Positions 1 through 19,798 of a stretch of 64,000 bases of DNA are shown here, piece by piece. The stretch is from a virus (Duplodnaviria > Caudoviricetes). The notes beneath the pieces are model-generated. The model was not told the DNA's origin. It did not search any database and worked only from the letters and a program-made list of their open reading frames with translations. A program made the translations under genes and the position numbers. Numbering within the stretch: the first letter of the stretch is position 1; the number at the start of each line of letters is the position of its first letter. Location of the stretch: IMG/VR virus record IMGVR_UViG_2887663082_000001, positions 1 to 64,000 of that record. One strand, given 5' to 3'.

Positions 1-300
1 TTAAACAATCCGAAGATTTGCAGAAAAAGTATGGCATCGGCAGTCAGCTACTTAAACAATCTGAAGATTTGCAGAGAAAATATGGCATCGGCAATCAGCT
101 ACTTAAACAATCTGAAGATTTGCAGAAAAAGTATGGCATCGGCAGTCAGCTACTTAAACAATCTGAAAATTTGCAGAAAAAGTATGGCATCGGCAGTCAG
201 CTGCTTAAGCAATCGATGGATTTGCAGAGAAAATATGGCATTGGCAGTCAGTTACTGAAACAAGCGGAAGAATTCCAAAGAAAACTTGGCATTGGCAGAA
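1..300 (+). repeat. 51-bp coding tandem repeat, about 5 good copies plus a degenerate one
   Basis: Unit ttaaacaatctgaagatttgcagaaaaagtatggcatcggcagtcagctac starts at 1, 52, 103, 154 and 205. Confidence 0.95.
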
Positions 301-2315: not shown

Positions 2316-2372
2316 AGTGGCATCCTCAAAGTTGATTTTGAAAATCACCACCTTGAGGTTCCAATCTCGCTG

Positions 2373-2457
2373 GTGGTGAGCTGGACAGGGTTGGAACTAC
2401 CGGTCAACTTTGAGCATAACCCGGCGAGCCTTTCGGCTCCCCCGCCCAGCCCACCAT
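2373..2457 (-). ncRNA. c4: C4 antisense RNA, copy 1
   Basis: Closing stem ATGGTGGGCTGGGC...GTCCAGCTCACCAC; loops TCAAAGTT and GTTCCAA are complementary to flanking boxes at 2515-2540 and 2325-2365. Confidence 0.85.
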
Positions 2458-2568
2458 AATTCAGATATGACAAAGCATAGGCACAAAAAAACACGCTGGC
2501 GCGTGCTGTGCGCTTCAAAGTTGGTTCGGGGTTCCAATCCCGGTTACAGATTTTGCTGCAACAACGAA

Positions 2569-2598
2569 ACCTTACTCTGAACCACCAACGAACGTCAA
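2569..2598 (-). promoter_or_regulatory. Sigma70 promoter of the c4-icd-ant operon, copy 1
   Basis: TTGACG-18 nt-TAAGGT, nearly identical to 17855-17884. Confidence 0.65.
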
Positions 2599-2753
2599 CA
2601 CATCATCTGTGCTACCGTACTAAAAACGAGGGTTTTCTTAAATAAATAATTAGTATTTTATGTAAAACAGGTGTGCTTTGTATAATTTACATTCTATTCT
2701 GGACTCTGCGGGTGCCACAAAAAGCGCTCGTTGAGCGCTATTCTGTTTGAAGA

Positions 2754-3023
2754 TCACTCTTCTTTACTCTGAAACTCTTCATACTCGTTCGACATAAGGT
2801 ATTCAGCTCCCTTAGCTATCGCCCCCTTCCACTCAGTAATCCCAATCTCGCGAATGCGCTCAATTGGCTCGTTTGTTGCCGGGTTTCGGAGATATGTCCA
2901 GCGGTCACCCTTCTTCAGGGTGTATATGCGCCACACCGGATGGTGCTCAACAAATTCGCATCCGTGTGAGGCGGCCTCGTCTTGCAGACGTCGCAGGTTC
3001 ATATAAAGCGGGGTGTAACTCAT
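2754..3023 (-). CDS. lxc: Lxc-like C1 corepressor
   Basis: 89 aa; follows ulx/darB as in P1; LRRLQDEAASHG and EW motifs resemble recalled P1 Lxc. Confidence 0.55.
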   Translation of the reverse strand: MSYTPLYMNLRRLQDEAASHGCEFVEHHPVWRIYTLKKGDRWTYLRNPATNEPIERIREIGITEWKGAIAKGAEYLMSNEYEEFQSKEE

Positions 3024-3039
3024 GCATCCTCCTTACTGA

Positions 3040-3486
3040 CTATGGCCTGTCTGATTCCTGCTCCAGGTCATATGAGTAATATTCATATGGCTCATCATCA
3101 TCGGTTACCGGCAGCTGGTGGTATGCAGAATAAAACAAGCCATCTTCCAGACGCATGTTCTGATAAAGAGATGCGGCCACAACGGTTAGCGAATCATCGT
3201 CATAACTGTAGATGCTGAGCACATCCTCATCGATTTCGCCGGTTGCGTTGTACAGATTATTCTCGACCAGCAGCGACTTGATTGCAGGCCAGTAAGGGCC
3301 GTAGCTGCGATAATAACCGGGGCGCGCCCCGATGAACTTACCGATCCCATCCAAATAGTCGCTCACAAATTGCGACTCTGTTCTACCCGCCAGGGCACTA
3401 TCTCGAATAGCGGCAAGATAATCAGCGGTTGGTTTTTGGGTTTGCTCTAATGAAGCCATAATTTTATTGCCGGTGTTACCCGGCAA
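3040..3486 (-). CDS. ulx: Ulx-like protein (DarB incorporation factor)
   Basis: About 140-148 aa, directly downstream of darB, P1 synteny; start may be the ATG at 3459. Confidence 0.65.
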   Translation of the reverse strand: MPGNTGNKIMASLEQTQKPTADYLAAIRDSALAGRTESQFVSDYLDGIGKFIGARPGYYRSYGPYWPAIKSLLVENNLYNATGEIDEDVLSIYSYDDDSLTVVAASLYQNMRLEDGLFYSAYHQLPVTDDDEPYEYYSYDLEQESDRP

Positions 3487-3498
3487 TCTCCTGTTAGA

Positions 3499-6400
3499 TT
3501 AGTATTTTGCCACAACTTTGAGAATTTCGGCCTGGTCATATTTGCTGGGGATCAGCCACCAGCTACCGGCAAACTCTTCACCGGCGTCACGTCCGTTGTA
3601 ATAACGGGCACCATAAACAGACTTCAGGGTTTCCTTCGCGCGGAAAAGCGCGCCCGCTTTACCTTTCGGATCTTGCAGGCCATAACAACCGCCCGGAGCG
3701 AAGTTGAGACCATACTTCCCACGTAGATGTGTACTGTTCACCCGGATACGCAAACCAAGATCATCAGCCTCGTTCTCAACCACTTCTTTCGCGGCTTTGC
3801 GCGCATCTTCGCGCTTCTGGTATTCCTCAGTAGAAACGCCGAGACGCTTGGCCTCATAGGTATCTTTTACCCGCTTTTTATCGCCCTCCGGCATGTAGAA
3901 ATAAAGTTTATCGGCGTCACGGATCAGCTGGCGCGCATCGTCTTCATTCACCAGCAGTTCAGGCGTTACCAATGAAGCATCGAGGAGGCCCAGAATAACT
4001 ACGGCAGCGCAGGCTTCGACAACACGGAAATAATCCTGCCCGGTCCCGCCGTAGATGTTTAAGAATGTACCGGAGGAGCCATCCAGCACGCGCTGTATCT
4101 CACGGTCGCCAGGGGCATACCCGCTTTTAATAGCGTTACTGAATTCCTCGTAACGTTCCTGAGCTACACCGGCAACGCCAGCCTGCAATGCCTGCTGCGC
4201 ACGTTTCCTCAGCTGTGGCTTCTCTGCATTCAATGCATCGATGAAGTCCTGCACGTTGGTGTAATCCGGTGGGATTTCCCCAACGATCCACGCCAGGCGG
4301 TCGAGCTCTACGGAACGAACCAGGCCGTTGCGGATATACTCATTAACCGAGATATTGAAGTCCCGCGTGCTACTCCAGAGAGGGTAATTCTCGATTTTCT
4401 TAGCAACCAGAGACGCGATCTCATCGGCGCTGGCCACTTCGCCAAGACCTTCCATGACAGTTTTATAGTCCTGGCCGAAAAGCGCGGCCAAAAACGTTGG
4501 GCAGGCGTAGGTAATAAGCTCGCTCTGACGCTCCTGGATGGCTATCGCGCGCTTCAACTGCTCATCACTTCGGTCCGGATATACAAGCTTATGGCCGTTA
4601 TCCTGATACCACGAGACAGATTTAATATCAGACGATCCGTAGCCGTAACCGGCGCTGCGGATGTTCAGCGTCTGTTTGGCATACTTACCATTCTCATACA
4701 CTACGGCATAGTTATCGTTCAGCATTAACTGACCGGTTTTCAGGAAGGAATAGAACTGGTCCTTACTCAGCAGGGCCGCCGCATCTTTGATGTTTAGCCC
4801 ACCCTGCATTTTCGACAGTAATTCCAGCTCACTTTCAGTCACGTCGCATGGGTCACCCAGTAACTGCACCGGCACATCTTTAACGTGGCCTGGGTTTTTA
4901 TCTCCGTTCGCCGCGAATATGCCCCGCAAAGTTGCAGTATGAGCGTCAAAGTCGAGAGCCGTGATTTTGGCATACGAGATGGAATCGAACTTCCCGCCAC
5001 GACCGGCTACGTTGTAATGGAAATACTGGCCAACCTTATAGGTTTTACCCTCCACCAACAGGATATCTTTACCATGGTCGATCACGTCAGGATCGACGTC
5101 TAACAGACCTTCTTTGATGGCCTTCAGGACAACCGGGCGCAACTGTTTGATGTTCTTTTCAGCTTTCGCGAGGCGGGCAATCTTGCGCTGCTGCTTCATC
5201 AACGCGGAACGTGATGCCACATCGCCTTTGCTGGCAACATTCAATTCCTCGCGCTTGGAGCGCAGTTCGCTCTCTATGGCACGTGGGCGCCAGCTATCAC
5301 TCCTTTCAGACTTACCAGCAGTTGCACGCGCTTTGATTGCTTCACGTTCGGCCAGCAGTTCGTCCATTTCAGAGCGAACTGCCTCGAGGGTTTTTGTTGT
5401 CCGTTCAACCTCACCTTGCAGGTAGGCAACTTTTTTCTGCTCCTTGTCTAAGTCGCTGCCGCTGGCGTGCTGCGCCTTCAGGTAGTTCTGCAGATCAAGG
5501 TTGGCGCGCTTGGTTGCTTTGGCTTTAACAGCGGCTTTCGCTTTGGCCATTTGCTCGGCAACACGGCGCTCACGTTCTTCCGGGTTGGCCGCCAGCAGCA
5601 ACTGCATTTCGACCATGTTCCCGGCGTCGGCGTTCTCCATCTCAGCTTTATCAGAGGTGAGGATTTCGCGTATCCAGTCTTTCTTACGCTTCAGCGTCTG
5701 CAGGCGGAACTCATCAAACGATCCTCGACCGCAATAGTAATGAACCTTCACGGAATCTTGAGTTGAGCCCACGCGCGCGCCGCGACCGTTGCGCTGGTCG
5801 ATTGAGGCCGGAGTCCACGGCAACGTTAAGTGGTGAATATCGGTCGTGCCAATGTGCAGGTTTATCCCGACCTCGGCCTTTTTGTTACAGATGAGGATGC
5901 GTGAGCGGCCTTCATTGTAATCTGCGGCGATCTGTTCAAGCCCGCCAAGACTGACCTCATTAACGGCAGCGATATACTCATCGTATGCGGCTTTCTGCTG
6001 ATAATAGGCCTTCACCTGCTCTTTAGTCGGTTCGTCCGGGAGCTCTTTAGGTGGCTTAACTTTTTTCGGTTTCCGACCTTTTTTACCGGCTTCGGCAACC
6101 GTTGTGGCATTCAGGATGCCAACGGCACTATCATCCAGTCCCAGATGTGAACAGATGATGCGCTTAAGCTTACCGTGCTGGCTTTTCTCATCAGTAAAGA
6201 TGATTTGTTTGCCGTGCTTCAGGCCTTCTTTCAGTCCCTCAATCAGCGCGCTGTATTTCGGCGTCAGAGGGTGAGTAACGTCCTTAGGATCGATATCGAA
6301 CGTAGAGAGACGCTTCAGCACCTCTTGCTCGTACATTTCCGGGACGATCAGCGTGCAGGCGTTGCCATCAACATCGACGGTGAAACGCCCTTCAGCGTCA

Positions 6401-9400
6401 TAATCCTCGTCGTTTTCGTCTTTAGTGCCCAGGGAATCTGGCAGGTCGGCCACCAGCTGCTGTACCTTATCAGCATACGACGCTGGCAGGATAAAGGTGA
6501 TTTGGTGCCGGTACAGGTCCATGTCGGTACAAACACGATCCATGTCGCGGATAATGCCGAAAATGGTGTCCTTCTCTTCCTCTACGTCTTCCGGCTCAGA
6601 GTCAAAATCCCCCATTTTGTCGTTCTGCGACAGCTTCTCTGCGCGCTGGCGCAGGTTCTCGTATTCAGCTTCCTGCTCTTCGGACATTGGCGCTTCAACG
6701 GTGCGCTCATCGAGCTCCGGAATTTTTACCTGTTCAGAGACATCCTGCGCCGTCTTCAGAGATACCCAGCGATGGAAGATACCGCGCAGACCAGGGAGGT
6801 TACGGAAACCGACCAGGCCAAGTTTGCTTTCCACTTCGCCAGACAGTTTCTGGACCAGGCACATCTCTTTCTTACCGAATACTTTAACGAAATCATCCGG
6901 CGTGAAGATCCCCATGCGCTGCCAGTCGGACATGCTCAGGCAGTGAGAGAGCATATTGAAAGCGTCGATCGGGGAGTTGACCACCGGCGTAGCGGTAAGT
7001 AGCACCGGCCCACGGCCATTGTTCTTAGCCATCAGATAGGCGTTTTTAACAGCCATATCGCGCGCAGACTGGGAAACAGAAGGGACCGGGAGATATGCCA
7101 ACTGAGAGGCCTCACGACCGGCGCTGTAGCTGTTACGGTAGTTATGCCCCTCATCGACTACGACGCTATCAAACTGCATATCTTCGAAGTAAGGGAAATC
7201 CTGCTGTTTTTCGGTGCCGGTGTCGGAGTGTTCGGACAGAACGCGGTTCTTTTTCTGCTGCTCTTTGTAGGTTTCAGCGGCAACCTTAACGCGGCCCGCT
7301 TCAGCCTGAGCAAACAGGACATCGTGCGCATGATCGCGAATGGTTTCTTCGCGCATAGGGATGGCCGCGTATTGCTCTTTCGTCATGACCACAATCGGGT
7401 AGTTCGATTGAGGGATCATGTTCATACGGGCTTTAATGGTGGCGCTGTCTGAAATTTTCAGCGCATCGCGCATCAGCGGGTTGCCACTCTCATCAAATTT
7501 AGGCTCACCGTTTTCGCCGCGTTCCTGAACCTGGCGAATGCCGCCTGACTCATCAAGAATAGGCTCAAGCCCAACGAACAAGATCTTATTGAACATCTCC
7601 TCGCTGTAAAACGATTTGGACTCGTAATACCAGTTCTCATAAACGGCTTTCGGCACCACATACGCCATACGCGTGCTGCGCCCGTTCTCGATGTTATACA
7701 GGCCCAGCGCCAGCGCTGTTGTCGTCTTACCAAGACCGGTACCAAAGCCCATAATGCCGCGCCCATCTTCAGACAGACGGCGTATTTCCTGATTCTGGTA
7801 TCCAAACGGCGCGCGACGACCGCTAATGCCATTCAGGCCCAGCGGAGCATCAGACTGCTCAAATGGTATGAAGGAGTTAAACGCGGCATTGTACTGATCG
7901 ACCAGCTTGTCGATTTCATCATGCTGGCGAATCCAGTCATTGAAGCGACTTTCGAGGTCCTCGATGCGCGAGCGATAAGCTTCTGAGTTAACGCCGGTGG
8001 CGCGCCCACCGTTGAGGTATTTCTCCAGCTGAGAGGCAAAAGGATCACTGCCGGTCCGACGCGCATAAGTCGGGACCATTTCATTGGTCTCTTTGTCTTT
8101 CTTCAGCACCGTGCCGTAACGATAACCGGCGAACACGCCATTACTGCCGCGATAACCCAGATCAGAAGTTAATGCGCCGTTCTCGACTTTGATTGACTCA
8201 ACATAGGTCAGTTCGTCGTAACCATTCTCGCGCAAGAATTCCAGCACCAGGCTACGGTCGAACCAACGAGCATCGAGGGTAAACGCGATATCATCAACAC
8301 CGGTCCACTTACGTTTTGCTTTTATCTGTTCCAGCTGGCGCAGGTAGTTATTTTTCTGCGGCCCTTCCTGGATAACTGCCAGCACCCCCTGAATCTGCCC
8401 GGTGATTAAACCGACATCGCCGCTGGTAGCGCGGTCCATTGGCATCAGGTCACCGGTCGGCGTTAACGCAATGCCGTCAGTGTTCGCCAGCAGGTTAAGC
8501 AATTCCTCGTCGCTTTCTGGTAGTTCGGCGGTGGACGTCGAGCGGAACTCTTCCAGGGTGATCGGGATCAGGTCAATCTGGTTAAACAGGCTTCGAACTA
8601 CCTGCTCATGATTGGTAGTGTCATATTCCCCGGAGATCTGCGCATCGATCCCGCCCTGCAACAGATCAGAAAGTTCACCATTGCTGGTGATAGCCGCGCG
8701 GTATTTAAGCCAGTCACCGCTGTTATTACCTGAAATTTTGCTGATTTTGCCGGTATTGGGATCAGCGAAGCGCTGATACTCCTTATCCACCAGCTGCGCG
8801 GCGCTGGTGCGCAGGCTGTCTATGTAGTCGCCAGGCATCTTGTTCGCGATAGCGTCCTGCAGCACACCGATTTGTGCGCCGATAAGAGCCCCACGGAATA
8901 AGCGCTCCTGCAAATCGCCACGCTGTGTCAACGCATAGGAGTAGGCTTTACGAGTTGATTCACTCATGCTCTCCCAATAATTACCGGCAAGCGCTTGTAC
9001 CTGTTTCCAGTCACGCGCCAGCAGGGCGCTGGGGTTATCGAGGACCACCTTGATTTCATCGAGCGAGGAAACGCCGTAAATCGCCGGGTCCACCGTCAGA
9101 GTGCTCGATGGTGTGCTGATAATCCACTGGCCATCAACGAACTCATACCACTGGCCGTTCATCAGGCGCTTATCACCTTCTTTGGCAATCAGGCTCACCG
9201 GCTCCGCAACATTGAGTAAATCCCAGTTGATACGGCTATCGAATTTACGGGCCAACTTCTCTTTCAGCGCGCCAGGGGTGATCTGGTCATTCTTAATGAC
9301 GATACGCCCCTGGAAACCGGCGCTGACCTCGCCATAAACGAAACGCTTTCCATCATGCTCAAACCATTTGCCGGTAATGAACACCGGCCAAAGCACATTT

Positions 9401-10296
9401 GCCTCAGTCAGCAGTTCTTCTTTGGCCTGGAGGATCATGTTGGAAAGAGATTCCGGATGTTTGCGCAGCACCCATACATCGACCGCTGTCGGCGTACCGT
9501 TTTCTTTGAACGTGCCCGATGGCAAACGGTGGGCACCGAGGAACTCAGCTTTACGCGAGACCTGTTCACGCAGTTTTTTCATCCGTGTCCCGCTGGTCAT
9601 GCCATAGGGAACGATGATGCAGGCCAGGCCACCAGGTTTTATTTTGTCGAGCAGCCGCAAAATGAAGTAGCGACCAATATCCTTCTCTTTGGCGTAAGCC
9701 TTATCCAAATTGACGGTATCGCCGCGCGAGGAGCCAAACGGCACGTTGCCAACGCAGTGGTCAAAAATGGCATCATCCGTGCTGCTGGCCAACTTCTCAA
9801 ACGGCATAACGTGAACAGCATCTTCCGGGTGCAGGAGCTGGTTAATGCGTCCGGAGACAGGGCTTATCTCCGAAGCTGTCATGACGGTACCGCGCGGTTT
9901 CGTTTCGTTAAAAACACCAGCGCCAGAAGACGGTTCCAGTGTATTACCCGCATCAGCGCCGTAGAGCTTCATAATTTCCCAAATGCCCTCTGCGACAAAT
10001 TGAGGCGTGTAATATTCATCTGTCGAACCGCCAATACCGCCCTCGCCGGTATAGCGAGCCAGAATCTGCCGCTGCTCCGGCGTTAGCTCCGCGCCGTCCG
10101 GAAGGGAGTCGAGAAGCTCAATGGCTTTGCGGTTCGCCTCTTTACGTTCACGATCGACAGATACCCCGTCCTTCTTAGTGATCCCGTAGACAACCGGCTC
10201 GCGGGTAAGCCCCAGCGATTTGATCAGCCTTATGATTTCCCCAACTGTCCGAAACGAGTCGAGAATTTCCCCATATTTGCCATCCGGCATCGTCAC
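3499..10296 (-). CDS. darB: DarB antirestriction protein (methyltransferase plus SNF2-like helicase)
   Basis: 2265 aa; MTase motifs LEPSSGAG and VGNVPFG; helicase motifs GTGLGKT, VDEGHNY and QRNGRGARVG; divergent from the portal gene. Confidence 0.92.
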   Translation of the reverse strand: MTMPDGKYGEILDSFRTVGEIIRLIKSLGLTREPVVYGITKKDGVSVDRERKEANRKAIELLDSLPDGAELTPEQRQILARYTGEGGIGGSTDEYYTPQFVAEGIWEIMKLYGADAGNTLEPSSGAGVFNETKPRGTVMTASEISPVSGRINQLLHPEDAVHVMPFEKLASSTDDAIFDHCVGNVPFGSSRGDTVNLDKAYAKEKDIGRYFILRLLDKIKPGGLACIIVPYGMTSGTRMKKLREQVSRKAEFLGAHRLPSGTFKENGTPTAVDVWVLRKHPESLSNMILQAKEELLTEANVLWPVFITGKWFEHDGKRFVYGEVSAGFQGRIVIKNDQITPGALKEKLARKFDSRINWDLLNVAEPVSLIAKEGDKRLMNGQWYEFVDGQWIISTPSSTLTVDPAIYGVSSLDEIKVVLDNPSALLARDWKQVQALAGNYWESMSESTRKAYSYALTQRGDLQERLFRGALIGAQIGVLQDAIANKMPGDYIDSLRTSAAQLVDKEYQRFADPNTGKISKISGNNSGDWLKYRAAITSNGELSDLLQGGIDAQISGEYDTTNHEQVVRSLFNQIDLIPITLEEFRSTSTAELPESDEELLNLLANTDGIALTPTGDLMPMDRATSGDVGLITGQIQGVLAVIQEGPQKNNYLRQLEQIKAKRKWTGVDDIAFTLDARWFDRSLVLEFLRENGYDELTYVESIKVENGALTSDLGYRGSNGVFAGYRYGTVLKKDKETNEMVPTYARRTGSDPFASQLEKYLNGGRATGVNSEAYRSRIEDLESRFNDWIRQHDEIDKLVDQYNAAFNSFIPFEQSDAPLGLNGISGRRAPFGYQNQEIRRLSEDGRGIMGFGTGLGKTTTALALGLYNIENGRSTRMAYVVPKAVYENWYYESKSFYSEEMFNKILFVGLEPILDESGGIRQVQERGENGEPKFDESGNPLMRDALKISDSATIKARMNMIPQSNYPIVVMTKEQYAAIPMREETIRDHAHDVLFAQAEAGRVKVAAETYKEQQKKNRVLSEHSDTGTEKQQDFPYFEDMQFDSVVVDEGHNYRNSYSAGREASQLAYLPVPSVSQSARDMAVKNAYLMAKNNGRGPVLLTATPVVNSPIDAFNMLSHCLSMSDWQRMGIFTPDDFVKVFGKKEMCLVQKLSGEVESKLGLVGFRNLPGLRGIFHRWVSLKTAQDVSEQVKIPELDERTVEAPMSEEQEAEYENLRQRAEKLSQNDKMGDFDSEPEDVEEEKDTIFGIIRDMDRVCTDMDLYRHQITFILPASYADKVQQLVADLPDSLGTKDENDEDYDAEGRFTVDVDGNACTLIVPEMYEQEVLKRLSTFDIDPKDVTHPLTPKYSALIEGLKEGLKHGKQIIFTDEKSQHGKLKRIICSHLGLDDSAVGILNATTVAEAGKKGRKPKKVKPPKELPDEPTKEQVKAYYQQKAAYDEYIAAVNEVSLGGLEQIAADYNEGRSRILICNKKAEVGINLHIGTTDIHHLTLPWTPASIDQRNGRGARVGSTQDSVKVHYYCGRGSFDEFRLQTLKRKKDWIREILTSDKAEMENADAGNMVEMQLLLAANPEERERRVAEQMAKAKAAVKAKATKRANLDLQNYLKAQHASGSDLDKEQKKVAYLQGEVERTTKTLEAVRSEMDELLAEREAIKARATAGKSERSDSWRPRAIESELRSKREELNVASKGDVASRSALMKQQRKIARLAKAEKNIKQLRPVVLKAIKEGLLDVDPDVIDHGKDILLVEGKTYKVGQYFHYNVAGRGGKFDSISYAKITALDFDAHTATLRGIFAANGDKNPGHVKDVPVQLLGDPCDVTESELELLSKMQGGLNIKDAAALLSKDQFYSFLKTGQLMLNDNYAVVYENGKYAKQTLNIRSAGYGYGSSDIKSVSWYQDNGHKLVYPDRSDEQLKRAIAIQERQSELITYACPTFLAALFGQDYKTVMEGLGEVASADEIASLVAKKIENYPLWSSTRDFNISVNEYIRNGLVRSVELDRLAWIVGEIPPDYTNVQDFIDALNAEKPQLRKRAQQALQAGVAGVAQERYEEFSNAIKSGYAPGDREIQRVLDGSSGTFLNIYGGTGQDYFRVVEACAAVVILGLLDASLVTPELLVNEDDARQLIRDADKLYFYMPEGDKKRVKDTYEAKRLGVSTEEYQKREDARKAAKEVVENEADDLGLRIRVNSTHLRGKYGLNFAPGGCYGLQDPKGKAGALFRAKETLKSVYGARYYNGRDAGEEFAGSWWLIPSKYDQAEILKVVAKY

Positions 10297-10303
10297 CTCC
10301 GAG

Positions 10304-10366
10304 AGTGAACTTTTGATAAATTAACGAAACATACTAATTGATTACTTAGTTTATCAAAGGTCACTT
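10304..10366. promoter_or_regulatory. Face-to-face late promoters for prt (+) and darB (-) with an operator-like site between them
   Basis: + AGTGAACTTT-tga-TAAATT (10304-10322); - AAGTGACCTT-tga-TAAACT (10366-10348); ATACTAATTG at 10331. Confidence 0.55.
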
Positions 10367-10371
10367 TTCGA

Positions 10372-12108
10372 ATGCCCAAGTTCCGGCAAGACAACATTTT
10401 GAAAGCGTTAGGTCAGCTACTACCCGGCGTGAAGTCGAACCACGGCAATGTCATGTCGCTGGGAGCCACCAGCAGCGGCGGCGGCGGCTTCATGAGCGTG
10501 TTTTCGCGCTCCTGCCTGTTGGGCAAGGATGAAACCGAAAATTCTGCTGATGGTTCGATGGTGAGCTCTGGCCGTGATCTGCTAAATGACGCGACACTTC
10601 CATTCGAGCGCCTGCAAAAGTATCCGTTTCTGGAAGAAATGGCCGCCTATCCGACGATCAGCCAGGCGCTCTATATCCACGTGTCCTATGCGTTCTCAAT
10701 CAATAAGCGCACCAATCTTTCCTTCGAATTTCAGCCGGTAACGGATGAAGACGACGCAGGGAATAAGGCAGCTCAAGAGATATGCCAGGAGTTAACGAGT
10801 GATATCGGTCTGAAGGTTAATGCTGAGCTCCCCAGCTGGGGGCTAATCATGGCCATCTTCGGTGTCTGCTACATCCGCCCGCATATCGAGCAGAAAGTCG
10901 GCATCACATCGATGGAGTGCAACTACTACACCCTCCCCTACTTCATTAAGGAGTATTACGTGGGCGGGGACCTGGCAGGCTTCACCGGTGATTACCTGAA
11001 AGATGAGACCGGCGCGCTCACATTCGCTAAACCGTGGGATATGGTTTCGATGAAAATCCCGCTTTGGCATCCAAGCCGCCAGAACATGCCGATCTATACC
11101 GGTTCGGAGCAGTTCAGTCTGCTTTCTGAGCCGTCTAAACGTATGCCGGTGGAGACACAGAACTACGGGACCAGTCTTCTCCAGAATGCATACGAGCCGT
11201 ACCTGAATCTGCGCGGCGCTATCCGGGCCCTGAAAGCGTCACGCTACAACGCCAGCAAAATAGACAGGCTGATTGGCCTGAACATGGATAATCTCGATCC
11301 GGCGCGCGCAGCACTCTATGGTCGCACGGTATCCGAGCAGTTGAAAAAATCCTCCATTCAGATGGAGAAACGCGCTCGCGGTAACAATACCGCGCCGGTG
11401 GTTACCAACACCGTATTGCCAATACTGGCGAACGGTAAAGGGCAAATGACCATCGATACCCAGTCGATGCCCGCCGATATCTCTGGCATTGAAGACATCA
11501 TGTTTCACATCAAGCAGCTGGCGTCTGCACTTAACCTCGATTACACAATGCTCGGCTTTGCCGACCAGATGGCCGGAGGCCTTGGCGAGGGCGGCTTCCT
11601 CCGCACCAGCATACAGGCCGGGATGGTCGCGGGCTGGCTGCGCGGCGGGGCCGCTGAGACTATCTATCGGCTTTGCGATATCCACCTGGCGAGTAAATAC
11701 GGAAAGGTTTACCCATCCGGAGATCGACCATACAAAATCGTTTTCAACTCTATGGCCACCAGCATCGAGCTGGAGGAAAGCGCCGCCATGGACAGCCATG
11801 CGAACTATGCGAGCGTGTTCGTCACCATCGCCGACGCTATATGCCAAAACCCGTCCCTGGCGAAATCCAATACCTTCAAACAGATCGTCCTTGGCGACGT
11901 CCTGAAAATCCCATCCACGAAGCTTGAGGCTCTGCTGACAGAACTTAAGACCTCGCAGGATGAGGAGGAAGGCAACTTCGGCAACGGCGGTAAGAAAGGC
12001 ATGTTTGAAAGTGTCACCCACCGGCCAGATGCCGAAATGTGCGAGTTCATCAGATCGATGGACCAGCGCGACCTGCAAAACATCATTATCGAAGCGTTTA
12101 AAGAATGA
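10372..12108 (+). CDS. prt: Portal protein
   Basis: 578 aa; divergent from darB; GGLGEGGFLRTS and IEDIMFH motifs of P1-type portals. Confidence 0.8.
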   Translation: MPKFRQDNILKALGQLLPGVKSNHGNVMSLGATSSGGGGFMSVFSRSCLLGKDETENSADGSMVSSGRDLLNDATLPFERLQKYPFLEEMAAYPTISQALYIHVSYAFSINKRTNLSFEFQPVTDEDDAGNKAAQEICQELTSDIGLKVNAELPSWGLIMAIFGVCYIRPHIEQKVGITSMECNYYTLPYFIKEYYVGGDLAGFTGDYLKDETGALTFAKPWDMVSMKIPLWHPSRQNMPIYTGSEQFSLLSEPSKRMPVETQNYGTSLLQNAYEPYLNLRGAIRALKASRYNASKIDRLIGLNMDNLDPARAALYGRTVSEQLKKSSIQMEKRARGNNTAPVVTNTVLPILANGKGQMTIDTQSMPADISGIEDIMFHIKQLASALNLDYTMLGFADQMAGGLGEGGFLRTSIQAGMVAGWLRGGAAETIYRLCDIHLASKYGKVYPSGDRPYKIVFNSMATSIELEESAAMDSHANYASVFVTIADAICQNPSLAKSNTFKQIVLGDVLKIPSTKLEALLTELKTSQDEEEGNFGNGGKKGMFESVTHRPDAEMCEFIRSMDQRDLQNIIIEAFKE

Positions 12109-13163
12109 GGACCAATATGGCACCTGAATTTAAAACCCTGTTAACCCACACGGACCGCTTCTCGCTGTTCAATAAAGTGCGTATAGGTAAGCAGAACAAC
12201 CGTAACTACATCCTGGAAGCTGTTAAGCGAATGATTAACAGCCCGGAAACCAGAGAAGGCCTGCGCCTGGGTGAGCTCTATGGTTACTATGGCCATAGCC
12301 GCCGCGAGCTGGCTAAAAACGTGGAACTTCCGGAAACCGCTGTCGTGATGGTAGAGGGTAAGCCGGTCGTATTGGATAACGTTCCCGGCAGCCGCACTAT
12401 CTCAATCTCAGTCGATGATGATGGCGTGGTGACTCATACCGAGGAGATCCTTGATACTCCAACCGGGCGCATTATCGCCAGTATGCTCGAATCGCGCGCC
12501 GGTGGCTGGTCGTGGGTTACCACTGGCCGCGACTCTCCGGCTGCATCAATCCCTACCGGCTTTTTCGGCTTTGATTACGTGACAATGCCGAACTTCATCA
12601 GCATGGATCATCCAGCGGCTATGCGCGAGAGCGCAGACGACCGTGATACGGCCATTACTGAGGCCCTTATCAAGCAAAAATTCACTGAGGACGACGCGAC
12701 CAACATCGTTAAGCATTACGCTGACCTCAGCCATCGAGAAGTTATGTTCGAGAGCATCCAGCGCATCGAAGAACTCGAAACTGCTCAGCTGGTGGCCGCT
12801 GGCGAATTGCTTGATAAGGATCGTCAGTTAGAAGAGCAGAAAACCATGCTCGAATCGTTGAAAAATATCGAATCCGAACAGGCAACGAAAACCCGCGAGC
12901 GTATGGCCATGTTTGAGCGGGTTCTCGATAAGCTGCCGATATTCACCAATCAGCGCCAGCGGGATGCCATCGCAAACATGAATACGGAAGAAGACTTCGC
13001 CATCGTCGATAAGCTTTTCGAATCGCTGGCCAGCCCCGCCATGCGCACGCTGCCGGTGGAACAGATCACCACCAGCGCGCAACAGCCTAAACCTCGCAAT
13101 GCTGAGCCAGTCGATAAATCCAGCATCATCAACTTTGAAAGCACCACGCGCCACTTTGGCTAA
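12105..13163 (+). CDS. pro: Head processing protease
   Basis: Follows prt; GYYGH, GGWSW and GFDYV..PNF motifs; coiled-coil C-terminus; likely start 12117. Confidence 0.8.
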   Translation: MRTNMAPEFKTLLTHTDRFSLFNKVRIGKQNNRNYILEAVKRMINSPETREGLRLGELYGYYGHSRRELAKNVELPETAVVMVEGKPVVLDNVPGSRTISISVDDDGVVTHTEEILDTPTGRIIASMLESRAGGWSWVTTGRDSPAASIPTGFFGFDYVTMPNFISMDHPAAMRESADDRDTAITEALIKQKFTEDDATNIVKHYADLSHREVMFESIQRIEELETAQLVAAGELLDKDRQLEEQKTMLESLKNIESEQATKTRERMAMFERVLDKLPIFTNQRQRDAIANMNTEEDFAIVDKLFESLASPAMRTLPVEQITTSAQQPKPRNAEPVDKSSIINFESTTRHFG

Positions 13164-13172
13164 GGGATAACC

Positions 13173-13361
13173 ATGAAGAACCCGATCATGAAGTATTTTA
13201 CGTATGAGCACTTACCGCCCATCTTGCAGGAGGTAAGTAAACCCATAGGCGAATTGGCCCAGCTTATGGATAGCACGCTCCCGGATAGCCCTGAAAAATC
13301 CGCAGGGCTGCGTAAGCTGCTCGAAGCAAAGGATGCCCTGGTCCGAGCTAAGTTAGGCTAA
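13173..13361 (+). CDS. 62-aa helical hairpin protein, possibly Acb2/Tad1-hairpin-like
   Basis: Good RBS and a terminator downstream; pattern FTY-H-P...ELA...PDSPEKSAGLRKLLEAKDALVRA. Confidence 0.6.
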   Translation: MKNPIMKYFTYEHLPPILQEVSKPIGELAQLMDSTLPDSPEKSAGLRKLLEAKDALVRAKLG

Positions 13362-13370
13362 CAGAGAGCT

Positions 13371-13394
13371 AAAGCCCCGCCAGGGGCTTTTTTT
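13371..13394 (+). terminator. Rho-independent terminator
   Basis: aaagcccc-gcca-ggggcttt followed by a T tract. Confidence 0.85.
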
Positions 13395-13466
13395 ATGACG
13401 TTTGATAGCGACACAACCGCAACAATAAATTAGTATTTTCTGTAAAGCCAAATACAAGGGGAAAAC

Positions 13467-13904
13467 GTGAATACCCAAAGCTCTACGATAAAACACGCCA
13501 GTAAGGCGACAATACGAAAAAACCGGGCGCAACGCCTACTGATTAAAGAACTCTTCCCTGCTCTTTTTCAGGGTAACCACCCGCTGCCGATGAAGAACGG
13601 CATCAAAGACGATATGCTCACGCAAATCGTCAGACGTGGCCTGGATATTTCTGAGGAAAAATTACAGCAGTCGTTGCGCGCATGCTGCTGCTCGCAGGTT
13701 TATCAGATGCGGATAGTTAACGCCCGCACCCGGCGCGACATCGATGGAAAACCGGTTGAGCTGATCAGCCGAGAAGACAAGAAGCATGCATGGAACCGGA
13801 TCTGCAAGTACCGAAAAGAGAACGGGTTGAAACCCTTGCCGTACCCATTGAAAGGCAAGAAAGACCCACGAAAAACGAAAGATGGTAACAGGACCTTAAG
13901 ATAG
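13467..13904 (+). CDS. ProQ/FinO family RNA chaperone
   Basis: LFPALF...PLPMKNGIKDDM...Y...RRDIDGKPVELISREDKKHA fits the FinO domain. Confidence 0.85.
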   Translation: MNTQSSTIKHASKATIRKNRAQRLLIKELFPALFQGNHPLPMKNGIKDDMLTQIVRRGLDISEEKLQQSLRACCCSQVYQMRIVNARTRRDIDGKPVELISREDKKHAWNRICKYRKENGLKPLPYPLKGKKDPRKTKDGNRTLR

Positions 13905-14081
13905 CAATTTGGCATATCGGCTGCGACAGCCGCAATCAACAGATCTGACTGCAAAGCTTAAGATTGTAGTCAGATCTGTTACCCCCCCTTAAAAATTGCT
14001 CGATACATATGCAGAGCACTTATCGACAACGATAAAACATAGGCATAAAATGAATTAACAGAAAATTTAGGGTTATTGATA

Positions 14082-14612
14082 ATGGAAAAAAACAAAGGAG
14101 TGCTTAAGTACCCTGCCCTCTTTTACTTAGCAGGCATAGTACCAATAGCATTAATTTTTTTGATTAACGCTACACTTCCCAACTCAGCCTTAATTCAATC
14201 TCTTTATTCTATCTCGATAGGACATGTACGGTCTTACTCAGAACAATTTCTTCAAGTAAGTTCTATCGCCTCGGCCTATACCAAAACAGCGCCGCTTTTT
14301 GTGTTCATATTGTATGTTCTATGCTGGCGAAAGATACGTTTATCGCCTGTCGATTTAGACGTTGCTAAATGGTGGAAACTACTGCCTTTACTCATACTGC
14401 TGATTATTGCTATTTTTGCCTTAACATATATTGGCGAGCAGAACATGACAACAACCAGTAAAAAAATAATTCGACTAGCATCAGGAAACCAAACTTTCCT
14501 ATTCGTATATTACATTGGTATGTTTGGTGTTAATTACTTCTTCACTTGGCTTATGGCGTTCTATATTCAAGTGTACGCAGAGTTTAAGAATAAAACTGGC
14601 AGCATCAAATAA
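14082..14612 (+). CDS. Immunity protein for a pore-forming colicin (A-type, multi-TM)
   Basis: About 176 aa with several hydrophobic segments; convergent with the colicin gene; SSIASAYTKTAP motif. Confidence 0.85.
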   Translation: MEKNKGVLKYPALFYLAGIVPIALIFLINATLPNSALIQSLYSISIGHVRSYSEQFLQVSSIASAYTKTAPLFVFILYVLCWRKIRLSPVDLDVAKWWKLLPLLILLIIAIFALTYIGEQNMTTTSKKIIRLASGNQTFLFVYYIGMFGVNYFFTWLMAFYIQVYAEFKNKTGSIK

Positions 14613-14613
14613 T

Positions 14614-14634
14614 AAAGCGGGCTAAGCCCGCTTT
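14614..14634. terminator. Bidirectional terminator between colicin and immunity genes
   Basis: aaagcgggc-taa-gcccgcttt. Confidence 0.8.
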
Positions 14635-14637
14635 CAA

Positions 14638-15756
14638 TTAATGTTTGAAGAGATTTATAACCTCTTTGTTCAAACGATCAGCCGCTGCTGCATCTATGAA
14701 TGAAGTAGCGTACGCTATAAATACTATAGCAAAATAGGAGACAACAACTGTCAGAGTCGCAGGTAGTGCGGCTGTTAGCAACCCAAGAATCGCAGTAACT
14801 ATTGCAATGGAGATGCTACCTGCAATCCCACTTAATACCATTGATTCAACTTCTAAACCAAGTGGTTTCCAGTTACCGGTTTGCACTCCCACTATAGCGG
14901 CTTCACGCACAGATTCTATTTTCAAAGCACGGTCTGCAACAGCAAATCCTTTGGATAGATTTTTCAGCTTATTAGAAATATCTGTCAGATTTAAGTTCCG
15001 CAAAGCGTTCGCAACTGCTGTTTTATCAGCAGCGCTAAGTTTGAGATTTGGATTCGCCATGAGACTGTTTAATGTCTTCATCGCATCATCAAAGCTTCTG
15101 ACCTTCTTGCCTTGGAAGTTTTTTATATCATTAGCGACTATTGCTGCAATATTTTTATACTGTGCAGAAAGTTTGGTTGTAACTTGCCCGCCTACATCAG
15201 CGATAATTGCACTCGCCCCAAGCAAAAGGCTTTTTTCATCCTTACTCATTTGATAACGTTTTACAATAGCCAATGCTTGATCATTCATCATCTGATCAGG
15301 ACGACTCGCGCCACCATCAACGTATACGGACTTATATGTGCCAGATTTGATATTGTAAATAACGCGATATTGTTCTTTGCCAAACCCGACAAAGTAGCCA
15401 ATCTCATTCGAATCTTTAGACCACGATTCACCTACAACAGGTTTACTTAGTGAACCTTTAGTTCCACTTGCCGAAGTCCAACCAGCGATGTTAGCAGTGA
15501 ATTTGGGAGAGCGACCGTTACCATTATTCACACCGCCAGTGGTCCCTGACGAAGTTACAGAGCTGCCTGAACCACTAAAAGTTATCCCCATCCCCCCAGA
15601 TATAGGATCATGAAAACCCGTAGCGGTCATGCCATCTGCGCCATTGCCTCCTGTACCGCCACCACTTCCAGATGTTCCATTAATATTGCCACTGGGCTGA
15701 CCACCACTATGCCCTAAACCTGTATTGCCCGGACCATTACCATCACCGCCACTCAT
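14638..15756 (-). CDS. Short pore-forming colicin-like bacteriocin (colicin N/A-type architecture)
   Basis: MSGGDGNGPG Gly-rich translocation region; AAGGAG RBS; pore domain IKNFQGKKVRSFDDAM...TGNWKPLGLEVES plus a hydrophobic hairpin; 372 aa. Confidence 0.92.
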   Translation of the reverse strand: MSGGDGNGPGNTGLGHSGGQPSGNINGTSGSGGGTGGNGADGMTATGFHDPISGGMGITFSGSGSSVTSSGTTGGVNNGNGRSPKFTANIAGWTSASGTKGSLSKPVVGESWSKDSNEIGYFVGFGKEQYRVIYNIKSGTYKSVYVDGGASRPDQMMNDQALAIVKRYQMSKDEKSLLLGASAIIADVGGQVTTKLSAQYKNIAAIVANDIKNFQGKKVRSFDDAMKTLNSLMANPNLKLSAADKTAVANALRNLNLTDISNKLKNLSKGFAVADRALKIESVREAAIVGVQTGNWKPLGLEVESMVLSGIAGSISIAIVTAILGLLTAALPATLTVVVSYFAIVFIAYATSFIDAAAADRLNKEVINLFKH

Positions 15757-16016
15757 GACTATCTCCTTGTTTGTGAATAAATGCATAAGCCTTATGAATT
15801 ACTCCTGAAAAACCACTCGGTCAAGACAACAAAACATACTAATTATTAAAAGTAGTGATTTATCACAAAGAAACTCAAAAATTTGTGGGGATGATGCGGG
15901 ATGGATACCTGACTGAAAAGAAGCAAATCTATCAAGAATTACGCAAAAAAATTGGTCATGAGCAACATAAAGAGTATTGTATCTACACGTTTTTGATACC
16001 TTTTTAACGGATAAAC

Positions 16017-16463
16017 ATGACAAAAATAATATTGATTGGAGTATTAACTTCTGCACTAACATCAACAGGTGCGCACGCAGCGATCACAAGCCATTGGACA
16101 TCAGGCGAATCAAAAGGAGTTCAGGCGTTCAATGTCAATGCAAAAAATGGCGTTGAATTAAGCGTTAATTGTGATTCATCAGGCAACAGAGATTTATTCA
16201 TTACTATTCCAGGCAAGCATGAATGGGTAACCCCTGATAAAAATAAAATCCAACTTCATTTAGGTGAAGACTCCTATCCCATCGAAGCATTAGGGACAAA
16301 CTACGGGGATTCATGGTGGTTCAACCTTTGGAAAGACGCAGCTGAATCTGATGAAAAAGTAATGACTATATTTGTCGACTCGAAGGAAACAGCAAGTGTC
16401 ACCTTGAAAGGTTTTAAACAACTTTATTCCTCTCAAGATGCTATGGATTGCTTGCGTCGTTAA
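16017..16463 (+). CDS. Hypothetical exported protein
   Basis: Signal peptide ending AHA; 148 aa; terminator-like hairpin at about 16466-16491. Confidence 0.7.
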   Translation: MTKIILIGVLTSALTSTGAHAAITSHWTSGESKGVQAFNVNAKNGVELSVNCDSSGNRDLFITIPGKHEWVTPDKNKIQLHLGEDSYPIEALGTNYGDSWWFNLWKDAAESDEKVMTIFVDSKETASVTLKGFKQLYSSQDAMDCLRR

Positions 16464-16491
16464 TTAAAAAGCCCCGGTTGGGGCTTATTTT

Positions 16492-16845
16492 TTAATCACT
16501 GCCGATATCCTTCATCCACTGAAGTCCAGCCATATGAACTCCAACCCCGCAAAGGAATGCAAAAATACCTATTACCCAGCTCGCGCCTGATGATTCGAAC
16601 AATGTCCCAATGCCATAGCCGATAGCCCCCCAAACAAGGCTCAGCAAGAACAGCAATGGCACGGCAATCACCTTAAACTGTAGGCCGATCATCAGTGCTG
16701 CAAACGTGCCACCACCTACCCACCAAGATTGCTTCATAAAACCGGCTGCAATGGCAATGATGAAAATCTCAGCAATCAATATTCCTGAATGTTCTTCGTT
16801 AAATTTGGCATTTGTCATGCCCTTTCTTACATCATCTGATGACAT
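16492..16845 (-). CDS. Hypothetical multi-pass membrane protein
   Basis: Three to four hydrophobic helices; likely start MSSDD at 16845 (GAGG upstream). Confidence 0.7.
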   Translation of the reverse strand: MSSDDVRKGMTNAKFNEEHSGILIAEIFIIAIAAGFMKQSWWVGGGTFAALMIGLQFKVIAVPLLFLLSLVWGAIGYGIGTLFESSGASWVIGIFAFLCGVGVHMAGLQWMKDIGSD

Positions 16846-16855
16846 ACATCCCTCG

Positions 16856-17701
16856 TTAATAAGCATTAAAATCAATCAAATCGTATTGAACAAGCCCTTC
16901 CCAAGACGGTATAGAGTTTGCTGGTTGCATGACGCAGGCTAAAACCATCATGTCATATTGATCTTTGTAGTATTGCTGAGTCGAGTCCAATGAACTCATT
17001 TTTGAATATTTTTGCCCACTAAAGATTGAAGAGGCATTTGCGGCGTCTTTTCTATTAGTCGAAACCGCCTTTAATATGTATTCAACATAGTCAGTCGAAA
17101 GACCTATGTTTTTGGCATGCTGGAGAGCAGATACAAGGTATTTTTCATCTTTAGTTGAAAGGTATCCATATGTATCTCCAGTAACGCCCATGTACTGCTC
17201 GCATGCCGTTTGGACCGACATTTTTCCTTTAGCTGGCTTACGATGTGCTGGTTTAGTTTCCTTTTCTGGAGGTGCAGCTGGTGGAGGAGCATTAGGATCT
17301 TCTGTGGTTATATTTTTTACGTCGAGTAGAAGTGGCGTATGTTCTTCTGCCTTTGTGGAGTAAAACAGATGCCCTATTGCAAACACCTCTTTGCCTTCGA
17401 ATGCTTTGGCTTGGTCATTTTCAACCGCTAACTGAATCTTGGTTTTATCACCATCTGGGGCGTTCTTTGCGCAGACTTCTTCGTTTTTGGCTTCAGTAAA
17501 GAGAACCCACTTTGGACCTGGCGCGGCTCCCGTATACGTCACTTGCCTTAAGACTCCGTGAATTGCCAAATAATCACCTGGAGACATACACTCAGCTTGC
17601 GCAGCGGCGGACAAACAAATCCCTAACACCCCAGCAATGAGAGGAGTTTTCAAATTGAAATCCTGTTTTGTAAATTTTCGTAATATGAAGGTATCAGACA
17701 C
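16856..17701 (-). CDS. Exported two-domain protein at the P1 sim position
   Basis: Signal peptide ending AQA; Pro-rich linker; divergent from c4 copy 2. Confidence 0.65.
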   Translation of the reverse strand: MSDTFILRKFTKQDFNLKTPLIAGVLGICLSAAAQAECMSPGDYLAIHGVLRQVTYTGAAPGPKWVLFTEAKNEEVCAKNAPDGDKTKIQLAVENDQAKAFEGKEVFAIGHLFYSTKAEEHTPLLLDVKNITTEDPNAPPPAAPPEKETKPAHRKPAKGKMSVQTACEQYMGVTGDTYGYLSTKDEKYLVSALQHAKNIGLSTDYVEYILKAVSTNRKDAANASSIFSGQKYSKMSSLDSTQQYYKDQYDMMVLACVMQPANSIPSWEGLVQYDLIDFNAY

Positions 17702-17854
17702 AAGATAGCGAAATTTTGATCTAACTCACTGAAATTACATTACCATTTTTAGAAAACAGCCTATATATTCACCAAAATACCACTAAAAACAGATAATACT
17801 AAATAATTTCTTTGTTTATCCCCGCATTTAATGTACTGTTTTTAGGCTGATGTG

Positions 17855-17884
17855 TTGACGCCTGCTGGTGGTTCAGAGTAAGGT
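17855..17884 (+). promoter_or_regulatory. Sigma70 promoter of the c4-icd-ant operon, copy 2
   Basis: TTGACG-18 nt-TAAGGT; operator-like ATACTAAAT at about 17795. Confidence 0.65.
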
Positions 17885-17996
17885 TTCGTTGTTGCAGCAA
17901 AATCTGTGACCGGGTGTGGAAACCCGAATCGTTTACTAGAGGGCACAACACGCGCCTGCGTGTTTTTTTGTGCCTATGCCTAACCGCATCAATATT

Positions 17997-18075
17997 ATGG
18001 TGGGGCGTATAGGGCCGACTTCGGTCGGGCCGGGTTCTCTAGTGACCGGTTTTCCACCCCTGTACGTCTCACCAC
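17997..18075 (+). ncRNA. c4: C4 antisense RNA, copy 2
   Basis: Stem ATGGTGGGGCGTATAGGG...CCCTGTACGTCTCACCA; loops CTCTAGTG and TTTTCCAC are complementary to flanking boxes. Confidence 0.85.
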
Positions 18076-18131
18076 CAGCGGTTGTGGAAAACCCAGTGGT
18101 GATTACTTTCATCACTAGAGAGGTTGCCACT

Positions 18132-18326
18132 ATGGCTACGATCCCTACCCCGTCTCACCCTCAGTTCATCTGGCGATTCTATTCCTGCCAGAAACGCTAC
18201 TGCTACATCGTCATTGCACCTAACGAACCTGAAGCTCGTTCCAAGCTTCCTGACGCTCCGTGTGTGTTTGTTGCCCGGTTCCCTTCTGACTGCGCCACTA
18301 TCTCCTACTGGAGGGCGCGCTCATGA
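18132..18326 (+). CDS. icd: Icd-like protein, copy 2
   Basis: MATIPTPSHPQFIWRFYSCQKR; paralog of 2121..2315. Confidence 0.85.
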   Translation: MATIPTPSHPQFIWRFYSCQKRYCYIVIAPNEPEARSKLPDAPCVFVARFPSDCATISYWRARS

Positions 18327-19321: not shown

Positions 19322-19403
19322 GAAATTTAGCAGAGTGCAAAGATGCACTCTGCTTCTTTAACGCCTGCTATCACAAGGTTTCAGGTGAACACACCAGAAA
19401 TTT

Positions 19404-19798
19404 AAGGTGGGCAGTTTCATAAAAGGTGTACAGTTTCATAAATCTTCAAATCCTTTTCGTGAAAAGGTGGGTATCTTCATAAACAGAGCCATACCTCTGA
19501 GAAAAGGTGACCACTTTCATAAAGAAGTGACCTTGTAACTTACATATATTGAGCTGTTTTCAACCAAGGTGACCACGTAACAACCAAAAAGGTGCGTGGT
19601 TTCATAAGTGGATATAAACACAGTTATGAAAGTGGTCACCTTTGTCGTGTTTTTTATGAAAGTACCCACCAGCCACCAGAAAACCCCCCCATATTTTTAT
19701 GAAACTGGTCACCTTTTTATGATTCTGCACACCCTAAACAAAAAAGGTGAGCACCCGTTATGAAAGTGCCCACCTTTTTTATGAATGTGACTACCTTT
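19404..19798. repeat. incA-like copy-control iteron array
   Basis: About 11 copies of TTATGAAAGTGGTCACCTT-like units, about 5 on - then about 6 on +, downstream of repA. Confidence 0.9.

Follow-up and report, generated by a model that had tools for sequence, protein, structure and literature searches.

Two C4 antisense-RNA cassettes with different recognition codes on one P1-like phage-plasmid genome

The present analysis concerns the first 64,000 nucleotides (the window) of the 96,760-bp viral record IMGVR_UViG_2887663082_000001 of IMG/VR, in which two cassettes resembling the immI immunity switch of phages P1 and P7 point outward from one another, 15.4 kb apart. Each cassette carries its own C4 antisense RNA, a fold in which base changes are compensated, and a set of recognition and target sequences that match within the cassette and not between cassettes (Table 1). 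C4-based heteroimmunity of P1 and P7 is textbook biology and is viewed as a single switch per phage. Taken as a whole, the data probably describe a circular P1-like phage-plasmid with two complete, independently keyed immI-type switches that would work as they do in P1 and P7. The mechanism is of a known kind and nothing in it is mechanistically new; the doubled, differently keyed arrangement and a payload of the KilA-N type make it a variant.

The presence of two C4 cassettes on one genome had been proposed in a first-pass annotation of this DNA, and an Rfam covariance-model search confirmed it: both C4 RNAs match model RF01695 above its gathering cut-off of 45 bits, and both leaders match the isrK model (RF01394) above its cut-off of 50 bits and contain an intrinsic terminator, which places them in that family, characterised by two 5' hairpins and such a terminator. 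No C4 or isrK beyond these two of each was found when the whole record was scanned with Rfam. Each C4 folds into a long closing stem around two hairpins, and in an alignment of 17 C4 sequences all 27 consensus pairs are kept in both copies, with compensatory double changes in 15 of the 27 across the 17 C4s. Aligned in transcript orientation, the cassettes are almost identical in promoter and first leader hairpin (a 43-nt identical run; 92% over alignment columns 101-150), as the first-pass annotation had described, and their terminator tails are identical. Divergence is concentrated in the recognition elements and in the C4 stems, the changes in the stems being compensatory.

Table 1. Features of the two cassettes and their surroundings (window positions unless marked genome; SD, Shine-Dalgarno sequence; aa, amino acids)
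Feature	Position	Strand	Basis or remarks
C4 antisense RNA, copy 1	2369-2461	minus	Rfam RF01695, 74.9 bits, model 1-87 full length
C4 antisense RNA, copy 2	17993-18079	plus	Rfam RF01695, 82.9 bits, model 1-87 full length
IsrK-type leader, copy 1	2486-2562	minus	Rfam RF01394 isrK, 68.5 bits
IsrK-type leader, copy 2	17891-17968	plus	Rfam RF01394 isrK, 66.2 bits
Intrinsic terminator, leader 1	2490-2507 plus T-run	minus	terminator scan
Intrinsic terminator, leader 2	17947-17964 plus T-run	plus	terminator scan
Copy 1 b' loop GCTCAAAGTTGA	2404-2415	minus	within C4
Copy 1 a' junction GTTCCAA	2391-2397	minus	within C4
Copy 1 a1 TTGGAAC	2531-2537	minus	in IsrK-type leader
Copy 1 b1 CAACTTTGA	2515-2523	minus	in IsrK-type leader
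Copy 1 a2 TTGGAAC	2358-2364	minus	target site
Copy 1 b2 TCAACTTTGAG	2325-2335	minus	target, overlaps icd SD GAGGA (2323-2327)
Copy 2 b' loop TCTCTAGTGA	18036-18045	plus	within C4
Copy 2 a' junction GTTTTCCAC	18049-18057	plus	within C4
Copy 2 a1 GTGGAAA	17916-17922	plus	in IsrK-type leader
Copy 2 b1 ACTAGAG	17935-17941	plus	in IsrK-type leader
Copy 2 a2 GTGGAAAAC	18084-18092	plus	target site
Copy 2 b2 TCACTAGAGA	18112-18121	plus	target, overlaps SD GAGAGG (18118-18123)
Candidate C1-type operator, cassette 1 (TTACATAAAATACTAATTAT)	2646-2665	minus	motif recurrence and position; overlaps -10 of predicted upstream promoter
Candidate C1-type operator, cassette 2 (AAACAGATAATACTAAATAAT)	17787-17807	plus	motif recurrence and position; overlaps -10 of predicted upstream promoter
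P51b-like promoter, cassette 1	2569-2598	minus	-35 TTGACG, 18-nt spacer, -10 TAAGGT; inferred from conservation
P51b-like promoter, cassette 2	17855-17884	plus	-35 TTGACG, 18-nt spacer, -10 TAAGGT; inferred from conservation
Sites of motif TTACAGAnnATACTAATTAT	genome 2657, 13437, 17795, 51759, 57663, 63355, 65149, 75467, 85664, 93061, 95292		
Icd-like protein, copy 1, 64 aa	2121-2315	minus	NF033153 phage_ICD_like, 4.8e-13; phrog_1426; 69% identity to P1 Icd (tblastn)
Icd-like protein, copy 2, 64 aa	18132-18326	plus	NF033153 match; 71% identity to copy 1
orfX, copy 1, 70 aa	1912-2124	minus	resembles N-terminus of P1 Ant1 and of copy-2 fusion protein
KilA-N domain protein, copy 1, 271 aa	1100-1915	minus	Pfam KilA-N, 1.7e-21
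Fusion protein, copy 2, 332 aa	18323-19321	plus	Ant1-N-terminus-like 1-60, KilA-N 85-193, C-terminal domain common with copy 1
DarB-like SNF2 protein	3499-10296	minus	between the two cassettes

In the nomenclature of P1, b' is the loop of the second C4 hairpin and a' the junction that follows the b' hairpin; a1 and b1 are the complementary sites upstream of C4, and a2 and b2 those downstream. In copy 1, b' (CTCAAAGTTGA) forms 11 bp with b2, reaching into the SD sequence GAGGA, and 9 bp with b1, and a' (GTTCCAA) forms 7 bp with a2 and 7 bp with a1. In copy 2, b' (TCTCTAGTGA) forms 10 bp with b2, reaching into GAGAGG, and 7 bp with b1, and a' (TTTTCCA(C)) forms 7 bp with a2 and 6 bp with a1. Complementarity on both sides of the RNA, with b2 at the ribosome-binding site, is the hallmark of the C4 family and is present in both copies. 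Full-length b targets have no other occurrence in a cassette context anywhere in the genome, and the agreement is far beyond chance. Every motif that the first-pass annotation had quoted was found where it had been placed, and its proposal of coordinated, mutually non-matching loop and target sets was borne out, the cognate pairings of 11+7 and 10+7 bp standing against only 5+5 bp between copies. Summed over loop-only segments, the cognate pairs have duplex energies of -26.3 and -21.8 kcal/mol and the cross pairs -12.4 and -12.0 kcal/mol, where the non-cognate mean across 14 cassettes is -12.3 kcal/mol; RNAduplex, run on complete C4 and leader or target sequences, takes no account of intramolecular structure and gave uninformative values of -35 to -53 for every pair. 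By the same loop-only calculation P1 and P7, which are heteroimmune, have cognate values of -19.6 and -20.5 and cross values of -9.3 and -14.3 kcal/mol. Between these two phages b' and a' differ by only 2 nt each, and the targets have changed to match, whereas the codes in the window differ by many bases and in loop length. Because pairing between the two copies is at the level of the heteroimmune P1 and P7, the two codes are predicted to be orthogonal by this yardstick, and cross-repression would not be expected from the pairing.

The order of elements follows that of immI, which in the annotated P1 record runs Oc4 (Op51) over P51a, P51b, a1, b1, c4, a2, b2, icd and ant (Oc4 and P2c4/P1c4 are also named there). 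The P51b-like promoter is kept in both copies and in the cassettes of relatives. Further upstream, a ~20-bp asymmetric motif, TTACAGAnnATACTAATTAT, was found at about eleven sites of the genome, and its core, ACAKANNATACTAA, has 5 matches within the window where 100 shuffles give an expectation of 0. In each cassette one site stands ~55-60 nt ahead of the conserved -35 TTGACG, which is the geometry of Op51/P51a relative to P51b in P1 and the distance at which the operator-like site stands from the constitutive promoter in immI; the sites at 57663, 93061 and 95292 adjoin homologues of hrdC, pmgR and pmgM, the positions of the P1 operators Odmt, OpmgR and Oppp. Owing to this P1-like spacing at the cassettes and to the sites where P1 has Odmt, OpmgR and Oppp, the motif is read as a candidate C1 operator, through which both cassettes may be wired into the same repressor circuit. 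A C1 repressor homologue is encoded beyond the window, at genome positions 69510-70196, with 26% aa identity to P1 C1 by tblastn.

The likeness to P1 and P7 extends to the common C4 fold, to b2 lying over the icd SD, to a specificity predicted to reside in the a'/b' bases and to the coupling of the reading frames. In both cassettes icd stands first and is joined to the next gene by a 4-nt ATGA overlap of stop and start (2121-2124 in copy 1, 18323-18326 in copy 2); in copy 1 the stop of orfX overlaps the start of the KilA-N protein as well. The products that follow icd are separate in copy 1 (orfX and the KilA-N protein) and fused into one 332-aa protein in copy 2. orfX is 38% identical to residues 5-65 of the fusion protein, a stretch that is itself 36% identical to Ant1 residues 1-62, and the start of the copy-1 KilA-N protein falls, when aligned, on Met73 of the fusion protein, a layout that resembles the nested ant1/ant2 genes. 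The copy-1 KilA-N protein shares 61% identity with the N-domain of P1 KilA and 57% with the copy-2 protein, of which residues 83-200 are 59% identical to that N-domain; both proteins belong to PF04383 KilA-N (76.5 and 78.9 bits, gathering threshold 23.8). The fusion protein also matches phrog_63, "anti-repressor Ant" (1.4e-12 over residues 1-205), and in its last ~80 aa the KilA-N protein is similar to the C-terminal parts of Rha, Bro-N, AntA and ORF6N proteins, which is a lead only. Homology to Ant2/KilAC was found nowhere in the payload proteins, and likeness to Ant1 covers only the first ~60 residues, so the first-pass label "ant" has to give way to a KilA-N payload behind an Ant1-N-like piece. 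Because the payload is not Ant1/Ant2, the cassettes, although they would work like immI, are not strict members of it at the payload level; "antirepressor-class" would be a reasonable label, and "ant" in the P1 sense appears unsupported.

It is also conceivable, if unlikely, that the switches are real and that what they guard is a host-killing or takeover function in place of an antirepressor. Each cassette would then be an RNA-guarded toxic module, of use in abortive infection, in plasmid addiction or early in lytic growth and not in immunity specificity. The premise would be that Icd blocks cell division and that KilA-type proteins kill the host; the 59-61% identity to the P1 KilA N-domain, the remark "product can kill host" in the P1 record and the absence of Ant2/KilAC homology are in keeping with it, and a plasmid prophage would gain from addiction modules. 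However, gene order and coupling copy immI and not the kilA-repL operon of P1, and no repL homologue was found downstream of the cassettes by tblastn with P1 open reading frames (ORFs). The copy-2 protein has the Ant1-like N-terminus and the PHROG match given above, and other phages have proteins annotated Rha, Bro-N, KilAC or antirepressor under the control of this switch. In addition, C4 is a stable, tRNA-like processed RNA, as described in published work on P1, and such an RNA is a poor fit to a labile antitoxin.

In both cassettes the sequence shows the same succession of parts: a candidate C1 operator that overlaps a predicted upstream promoter, the conserved constitutive promoter, the leader with a1, b1 and terminator, and C4; a2 and b2 follow, with b2 covering the ribosome-binding site, and then the icd-like gene, the Ant1-N-like piece and the KilA-N protein. 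By analogy with P1 and P7, each C4, processed from the operon transcript by RNase P, would pair through a'/b' with its own mRNA only and block translation of icd, and the block would extend by coupling or polarity to the downstream KilA-N antirepressor-class protein, while the terminated leader RNA, as suggested by P1/P7 and by Gifsy-1, may titrate its own C4. A lysogen would make two C4 species and, because the two codes mismatch, could silence incoming relatives of either code; an infecting phage of this type would be held back only where the resident supplies both codes. Wider immunity and escape from single-code lysogens are thus plausible, as they would follow logically from P1/P7 genetics. 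Several points weigh against this account. Expression of both cassettes is a prediction read from the sequence, and a consensus promoter scan did not call the P51b-like promoter in either cassette, its -10 TAAGGT being weak. The operators are assigned solely from motif recurrence and position. The a' elements of both copies have the 5-nt core UUCCA in common, and some residual cross-talk may thus occur. Finally, the antirepressor activity of the KilA-N protein and its action on the phage's own, distant C1 are assumptions, the payload differing from Ant1/Ant2, the proven antirepressor of P1.

The decoy role proposed for the leader can be compared with the isrK locus of the prophage Gifsy-1 (NC_010392.1, 32674-35812), in which a C4 at 69 bits and a c4-a1b1 match lie between isrK and an antirepressor-like gene. 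Because that locus scans as isrK/c4-a1b1, C4 and antirepressor-like gene, IsrK is equated here with the a1/b1 leader of a C4 cassette. The isrK-orf45-anrP locus of Gifsy-1 (Hershko-Shalev et al., 2016; PMC4825925) has a leader of the same isrK family, with the differences that Gifsy-1 is a lambdoid prophage and that its payload is another; the term "C4 RNA" has 0 occurrences in a full-text search of that paper. As PMC12197685 summarises the same work, the short terminated IsrK RNA is reported to activate translation of the downstream Gifsy-1 genes. So summarised, the report fits a decoy role of the leader, and each leader in the window carries the decoy sites of its own code. The CI RNA of satellite P4 and related RNAs fall in the same Rfam clan as C4 (CL00128). 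P4 CI, too, is an antisense RNA that is processed and whose complementary targets are repeated within its own leader; it works mainly by transcription termination and guards replication genes.

The genome that holds the cassettes has its nearest public records in two Citrobacter freundii plasmids (~97-99 kb), with ~81% nucleotide identity over 2776-19722, and the first 20 kb of the window had no megablast match in the phage collection. Searches by tblastn with P1 ORFs recovered homologues of tail, sheath, capsid and baseplate proteins, Dmt, HrdC, PacA and RepA, mostly at 40-60% aa identity. Judged from these genes and from its ends, the source molecule is a distant P1-like phage-plasmid, circular and ~97 kb long. 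A 51-bp tandem repeat contains both ends of the record (5.8 copies at window 1-298, the other end at genome ~94.0-96.76 kb), and when end and start are joined a single intact ORF results, for a 574-aa SH3-domain repeat protein in which a 17-aa repeat occurs at least seven times. Because the joined ends restore this ORF, the record is best taken as a circle opened by the assembler in the tandem repeat and not as two replicons joined. That one contig was made from two merged related replicons or phages, an objection the first-pass annotation had itself raised, would be in keeping with the IMG/VR class "linear" and with ends that fall within a repeat. It is nevertheless very improbable, because copy 1 has conserved backbone genes on either side and the record can be closed as a circle: synteny with the Citrobacter plasmid lies on both sides of copy 1 and runs on through copy 2 and rep, the structural genes of P1 type form a single set, and CheckV completeness is 96%.

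Copy 2 adjoins the plasmid rep gene. By comparison with relatives this is the ancestral site; the single cassettes of the Citrobacter plasmid and of the closest viral relative (88% portal identity) are found there too. Copy 1 stands in a variable cargo slot between the gene for the SH3-repeat protein and the block of an 89-aa protein, an Ulx-like protein and DarB (ulx/darB); the equivalent slot of the Citrobacter plasmid holds HNH, HigA and hypothetical genes. The portal and Pro genes, like the gene for the DarB-like protein, lie between the two cassettes. The 43-nt identical stretch is found at ~2556-2598 (minus) and ~17863-17905 (plus), inverted and 15.3 kb apart; recombination between its two occurrences could invert the darB-portal-pro segment. 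Segment by segment, the identities are mosaic. In its upstream promoter region copy 2 is most like the relatives (84%), and copy 1, in its C4 body and a', is closer to relatives (62-72%) than to copy 2 (54-62%); in the leader the highest likeness is that between the two co-resident copies (92%), above the leaders of relatives, perhaps through gene conversion between them. The C4 outer stem of copy 2 is identical to those of the Stx phages PA2 and EH0430. Because of this mosaic, exchange of the a1-to-b2 specificity segment as a module between conserved flanks is favoured, and the pattern would fit such exchange better than it would a simple duplication of recent date. In a search for a close donor of copy 1, neither plasmids nor viral contigs exceeded ~75% nucleotide or 57% aa identity to either cassette.

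Occupation of a cargo slot might mean that only one cassette matters and that the other is a passenger brought in by recombination, whether silent, decaying or made redundant by C4 cross-reaction. The unrelated HNH and HigA genes in the copy-1 slot of the Citrobacter relative, close relatives with one C4 or none, and the five nucleotides in common between the a' elements would agree with such a passenger. Yet both copies retain their ORFs, coupled starts, C4 pairs, a1/b1/a2/b2 sets, terminator, promoter and operator-like site, and decay is unlikely because co-variation, the first thing that a decaying passenger would lose, is intact. Pairing between copies, as noted, is at the P1/P7 heteroimmune level, and differently keyed sets recur independently in other genomes. 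A passenger copy is therefore improbable, and two working switches remain the preferred reading.

How often such sets occur was assessed by counting C4 loci and comparing codes among relatives, a check that the first-pass annotation had suggested. With the same Rfam model, the nearest viral relative and one tested Citrobacter plasmid have 1 C4 each, two further P1-like contigs have 0, P1 and P7 have 1 each, and another 24 viral contigs, which have KilA-N or portal relatives, carry 0-1 each. RCS47 has two C4s and pTA13-2 and an E. albertii plasmid three each, all with different b' loops and, in the two plasmids, with own-target matches of 8+7 bp, and the Stx phages PA2, GER2 and Stx2a_EH0430 each have two, with different a'/b' codes and matching targets. 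The earlier statement that there is one immI per genome thus stands for P1, P7 and the close relatives (0-1 C4) and fails for RCS47, the two other P1-like plasmids and several Stx phages, which have 2-3 differently keyed C4s. As a rough measure of abundance, blastn with the copy-1 RNA region found 371 places in 316 phage records and 511 places in 449 plasmid records. Two C4s are unusual within this lineage and not unique in general. Because the same is found in RCS47, other P1-like plasmids and Stx phages, multiple codes per genome form a recurring arrangement, and the window is therefore a further example of it and no singular discovery. N15-like pairs (YDC107_1; K. pneumoniae linear plasmid NZ_CP097706) were considered as orthogonal sets and excluded, their C4 cassettes being identical; these are inverted and lie ~7 kb apart around the protelomerase gene, and may be a true inverted, telomere-related duplication or an assembly artefact of hairpin telomeres.

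Against these systems the window can be placed as follows. Venturini et al. (2019; PMC6906374) described extra icd-ant modules in the P1-like RCS47, pSvP1 and pTZ20_1P at the gene level, C4 codes being unmentioned. As in the present phage, those immI-like modules were added in variable regions of a P1-type backbone; they differ in that the three are true Punavirus relatives with KilAC-type Ant payloads and insertions near c1/pacB or res-mod, whereas the genome studied here belongs to a distant lineage and has its extra copy beside the ulx/darB block. The Stx phages have two differently keyed C4s with targets, as here, and differ in their lambdoid backbone, in payloads annotated Rha or antirepressor and in having their cassettes 9-12 kb apart on the same strand. 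The difference from immI itself is that there are two cassettes in place of one, and that their payload is an Ant1-N-like piece with KilA-N in place of Ant1/Ant2 (KilAC), with no kilA-repL following. No description was found in the literature of several differently keyed C4s within one genome, although this is weak evidence given incomplete coverage of subscription journals.

A broader, and at present tentative, proposal is that temperate enterobacterial phages in general use stacked orthogonal C4 cassettes as a combinatorial "immunity barcode", and it may well not hold. Under this proposal, a module of ~220 nt from a1 to b2 would be swapped between two anchors, leader hairpin 1 and the SD/icd start, and leaders of co-resident cassettes would be homogenised by gene conversion. 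A prophage with n codes would gain n-fold protection, together with an AND-gate such that residents must match fully to block the invader, and the window would exemplify this for a P1-like lineage outside Punavirus whose antirepressor is of the KilA-N type. The arrangement bears on the mutual exclusion and displacement of phage-plasmids, many of which carry resistance genes, on the evolution of immunity specificities by co-variation as against module swapping, and on cross-talk between prophages in polylysogens, and it offers natural sets of orthogonal antisense-RNA/target pairs.

Two further features lie between the cassettes. A ProQ/FinO-family RNA-binding protein is encoded at 13467-13904, between the head genes and cassette 2, with relatives at 87-89% aa identity, and could act as an RNA chaperone for phage-plasmid antisense RNAs. 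A 382-aa protein with a colicin-like pore-forming domain (14638-15786, minus) adjoins a colicin immunity protein (14076-14612, plus); this block (14076-15786) is absent from the two closest relatives, and in the N15-like plasmid NZ_CP097706 of K. pneumoniae a colicin-like gene is located directly upstream of the C4 cassette.

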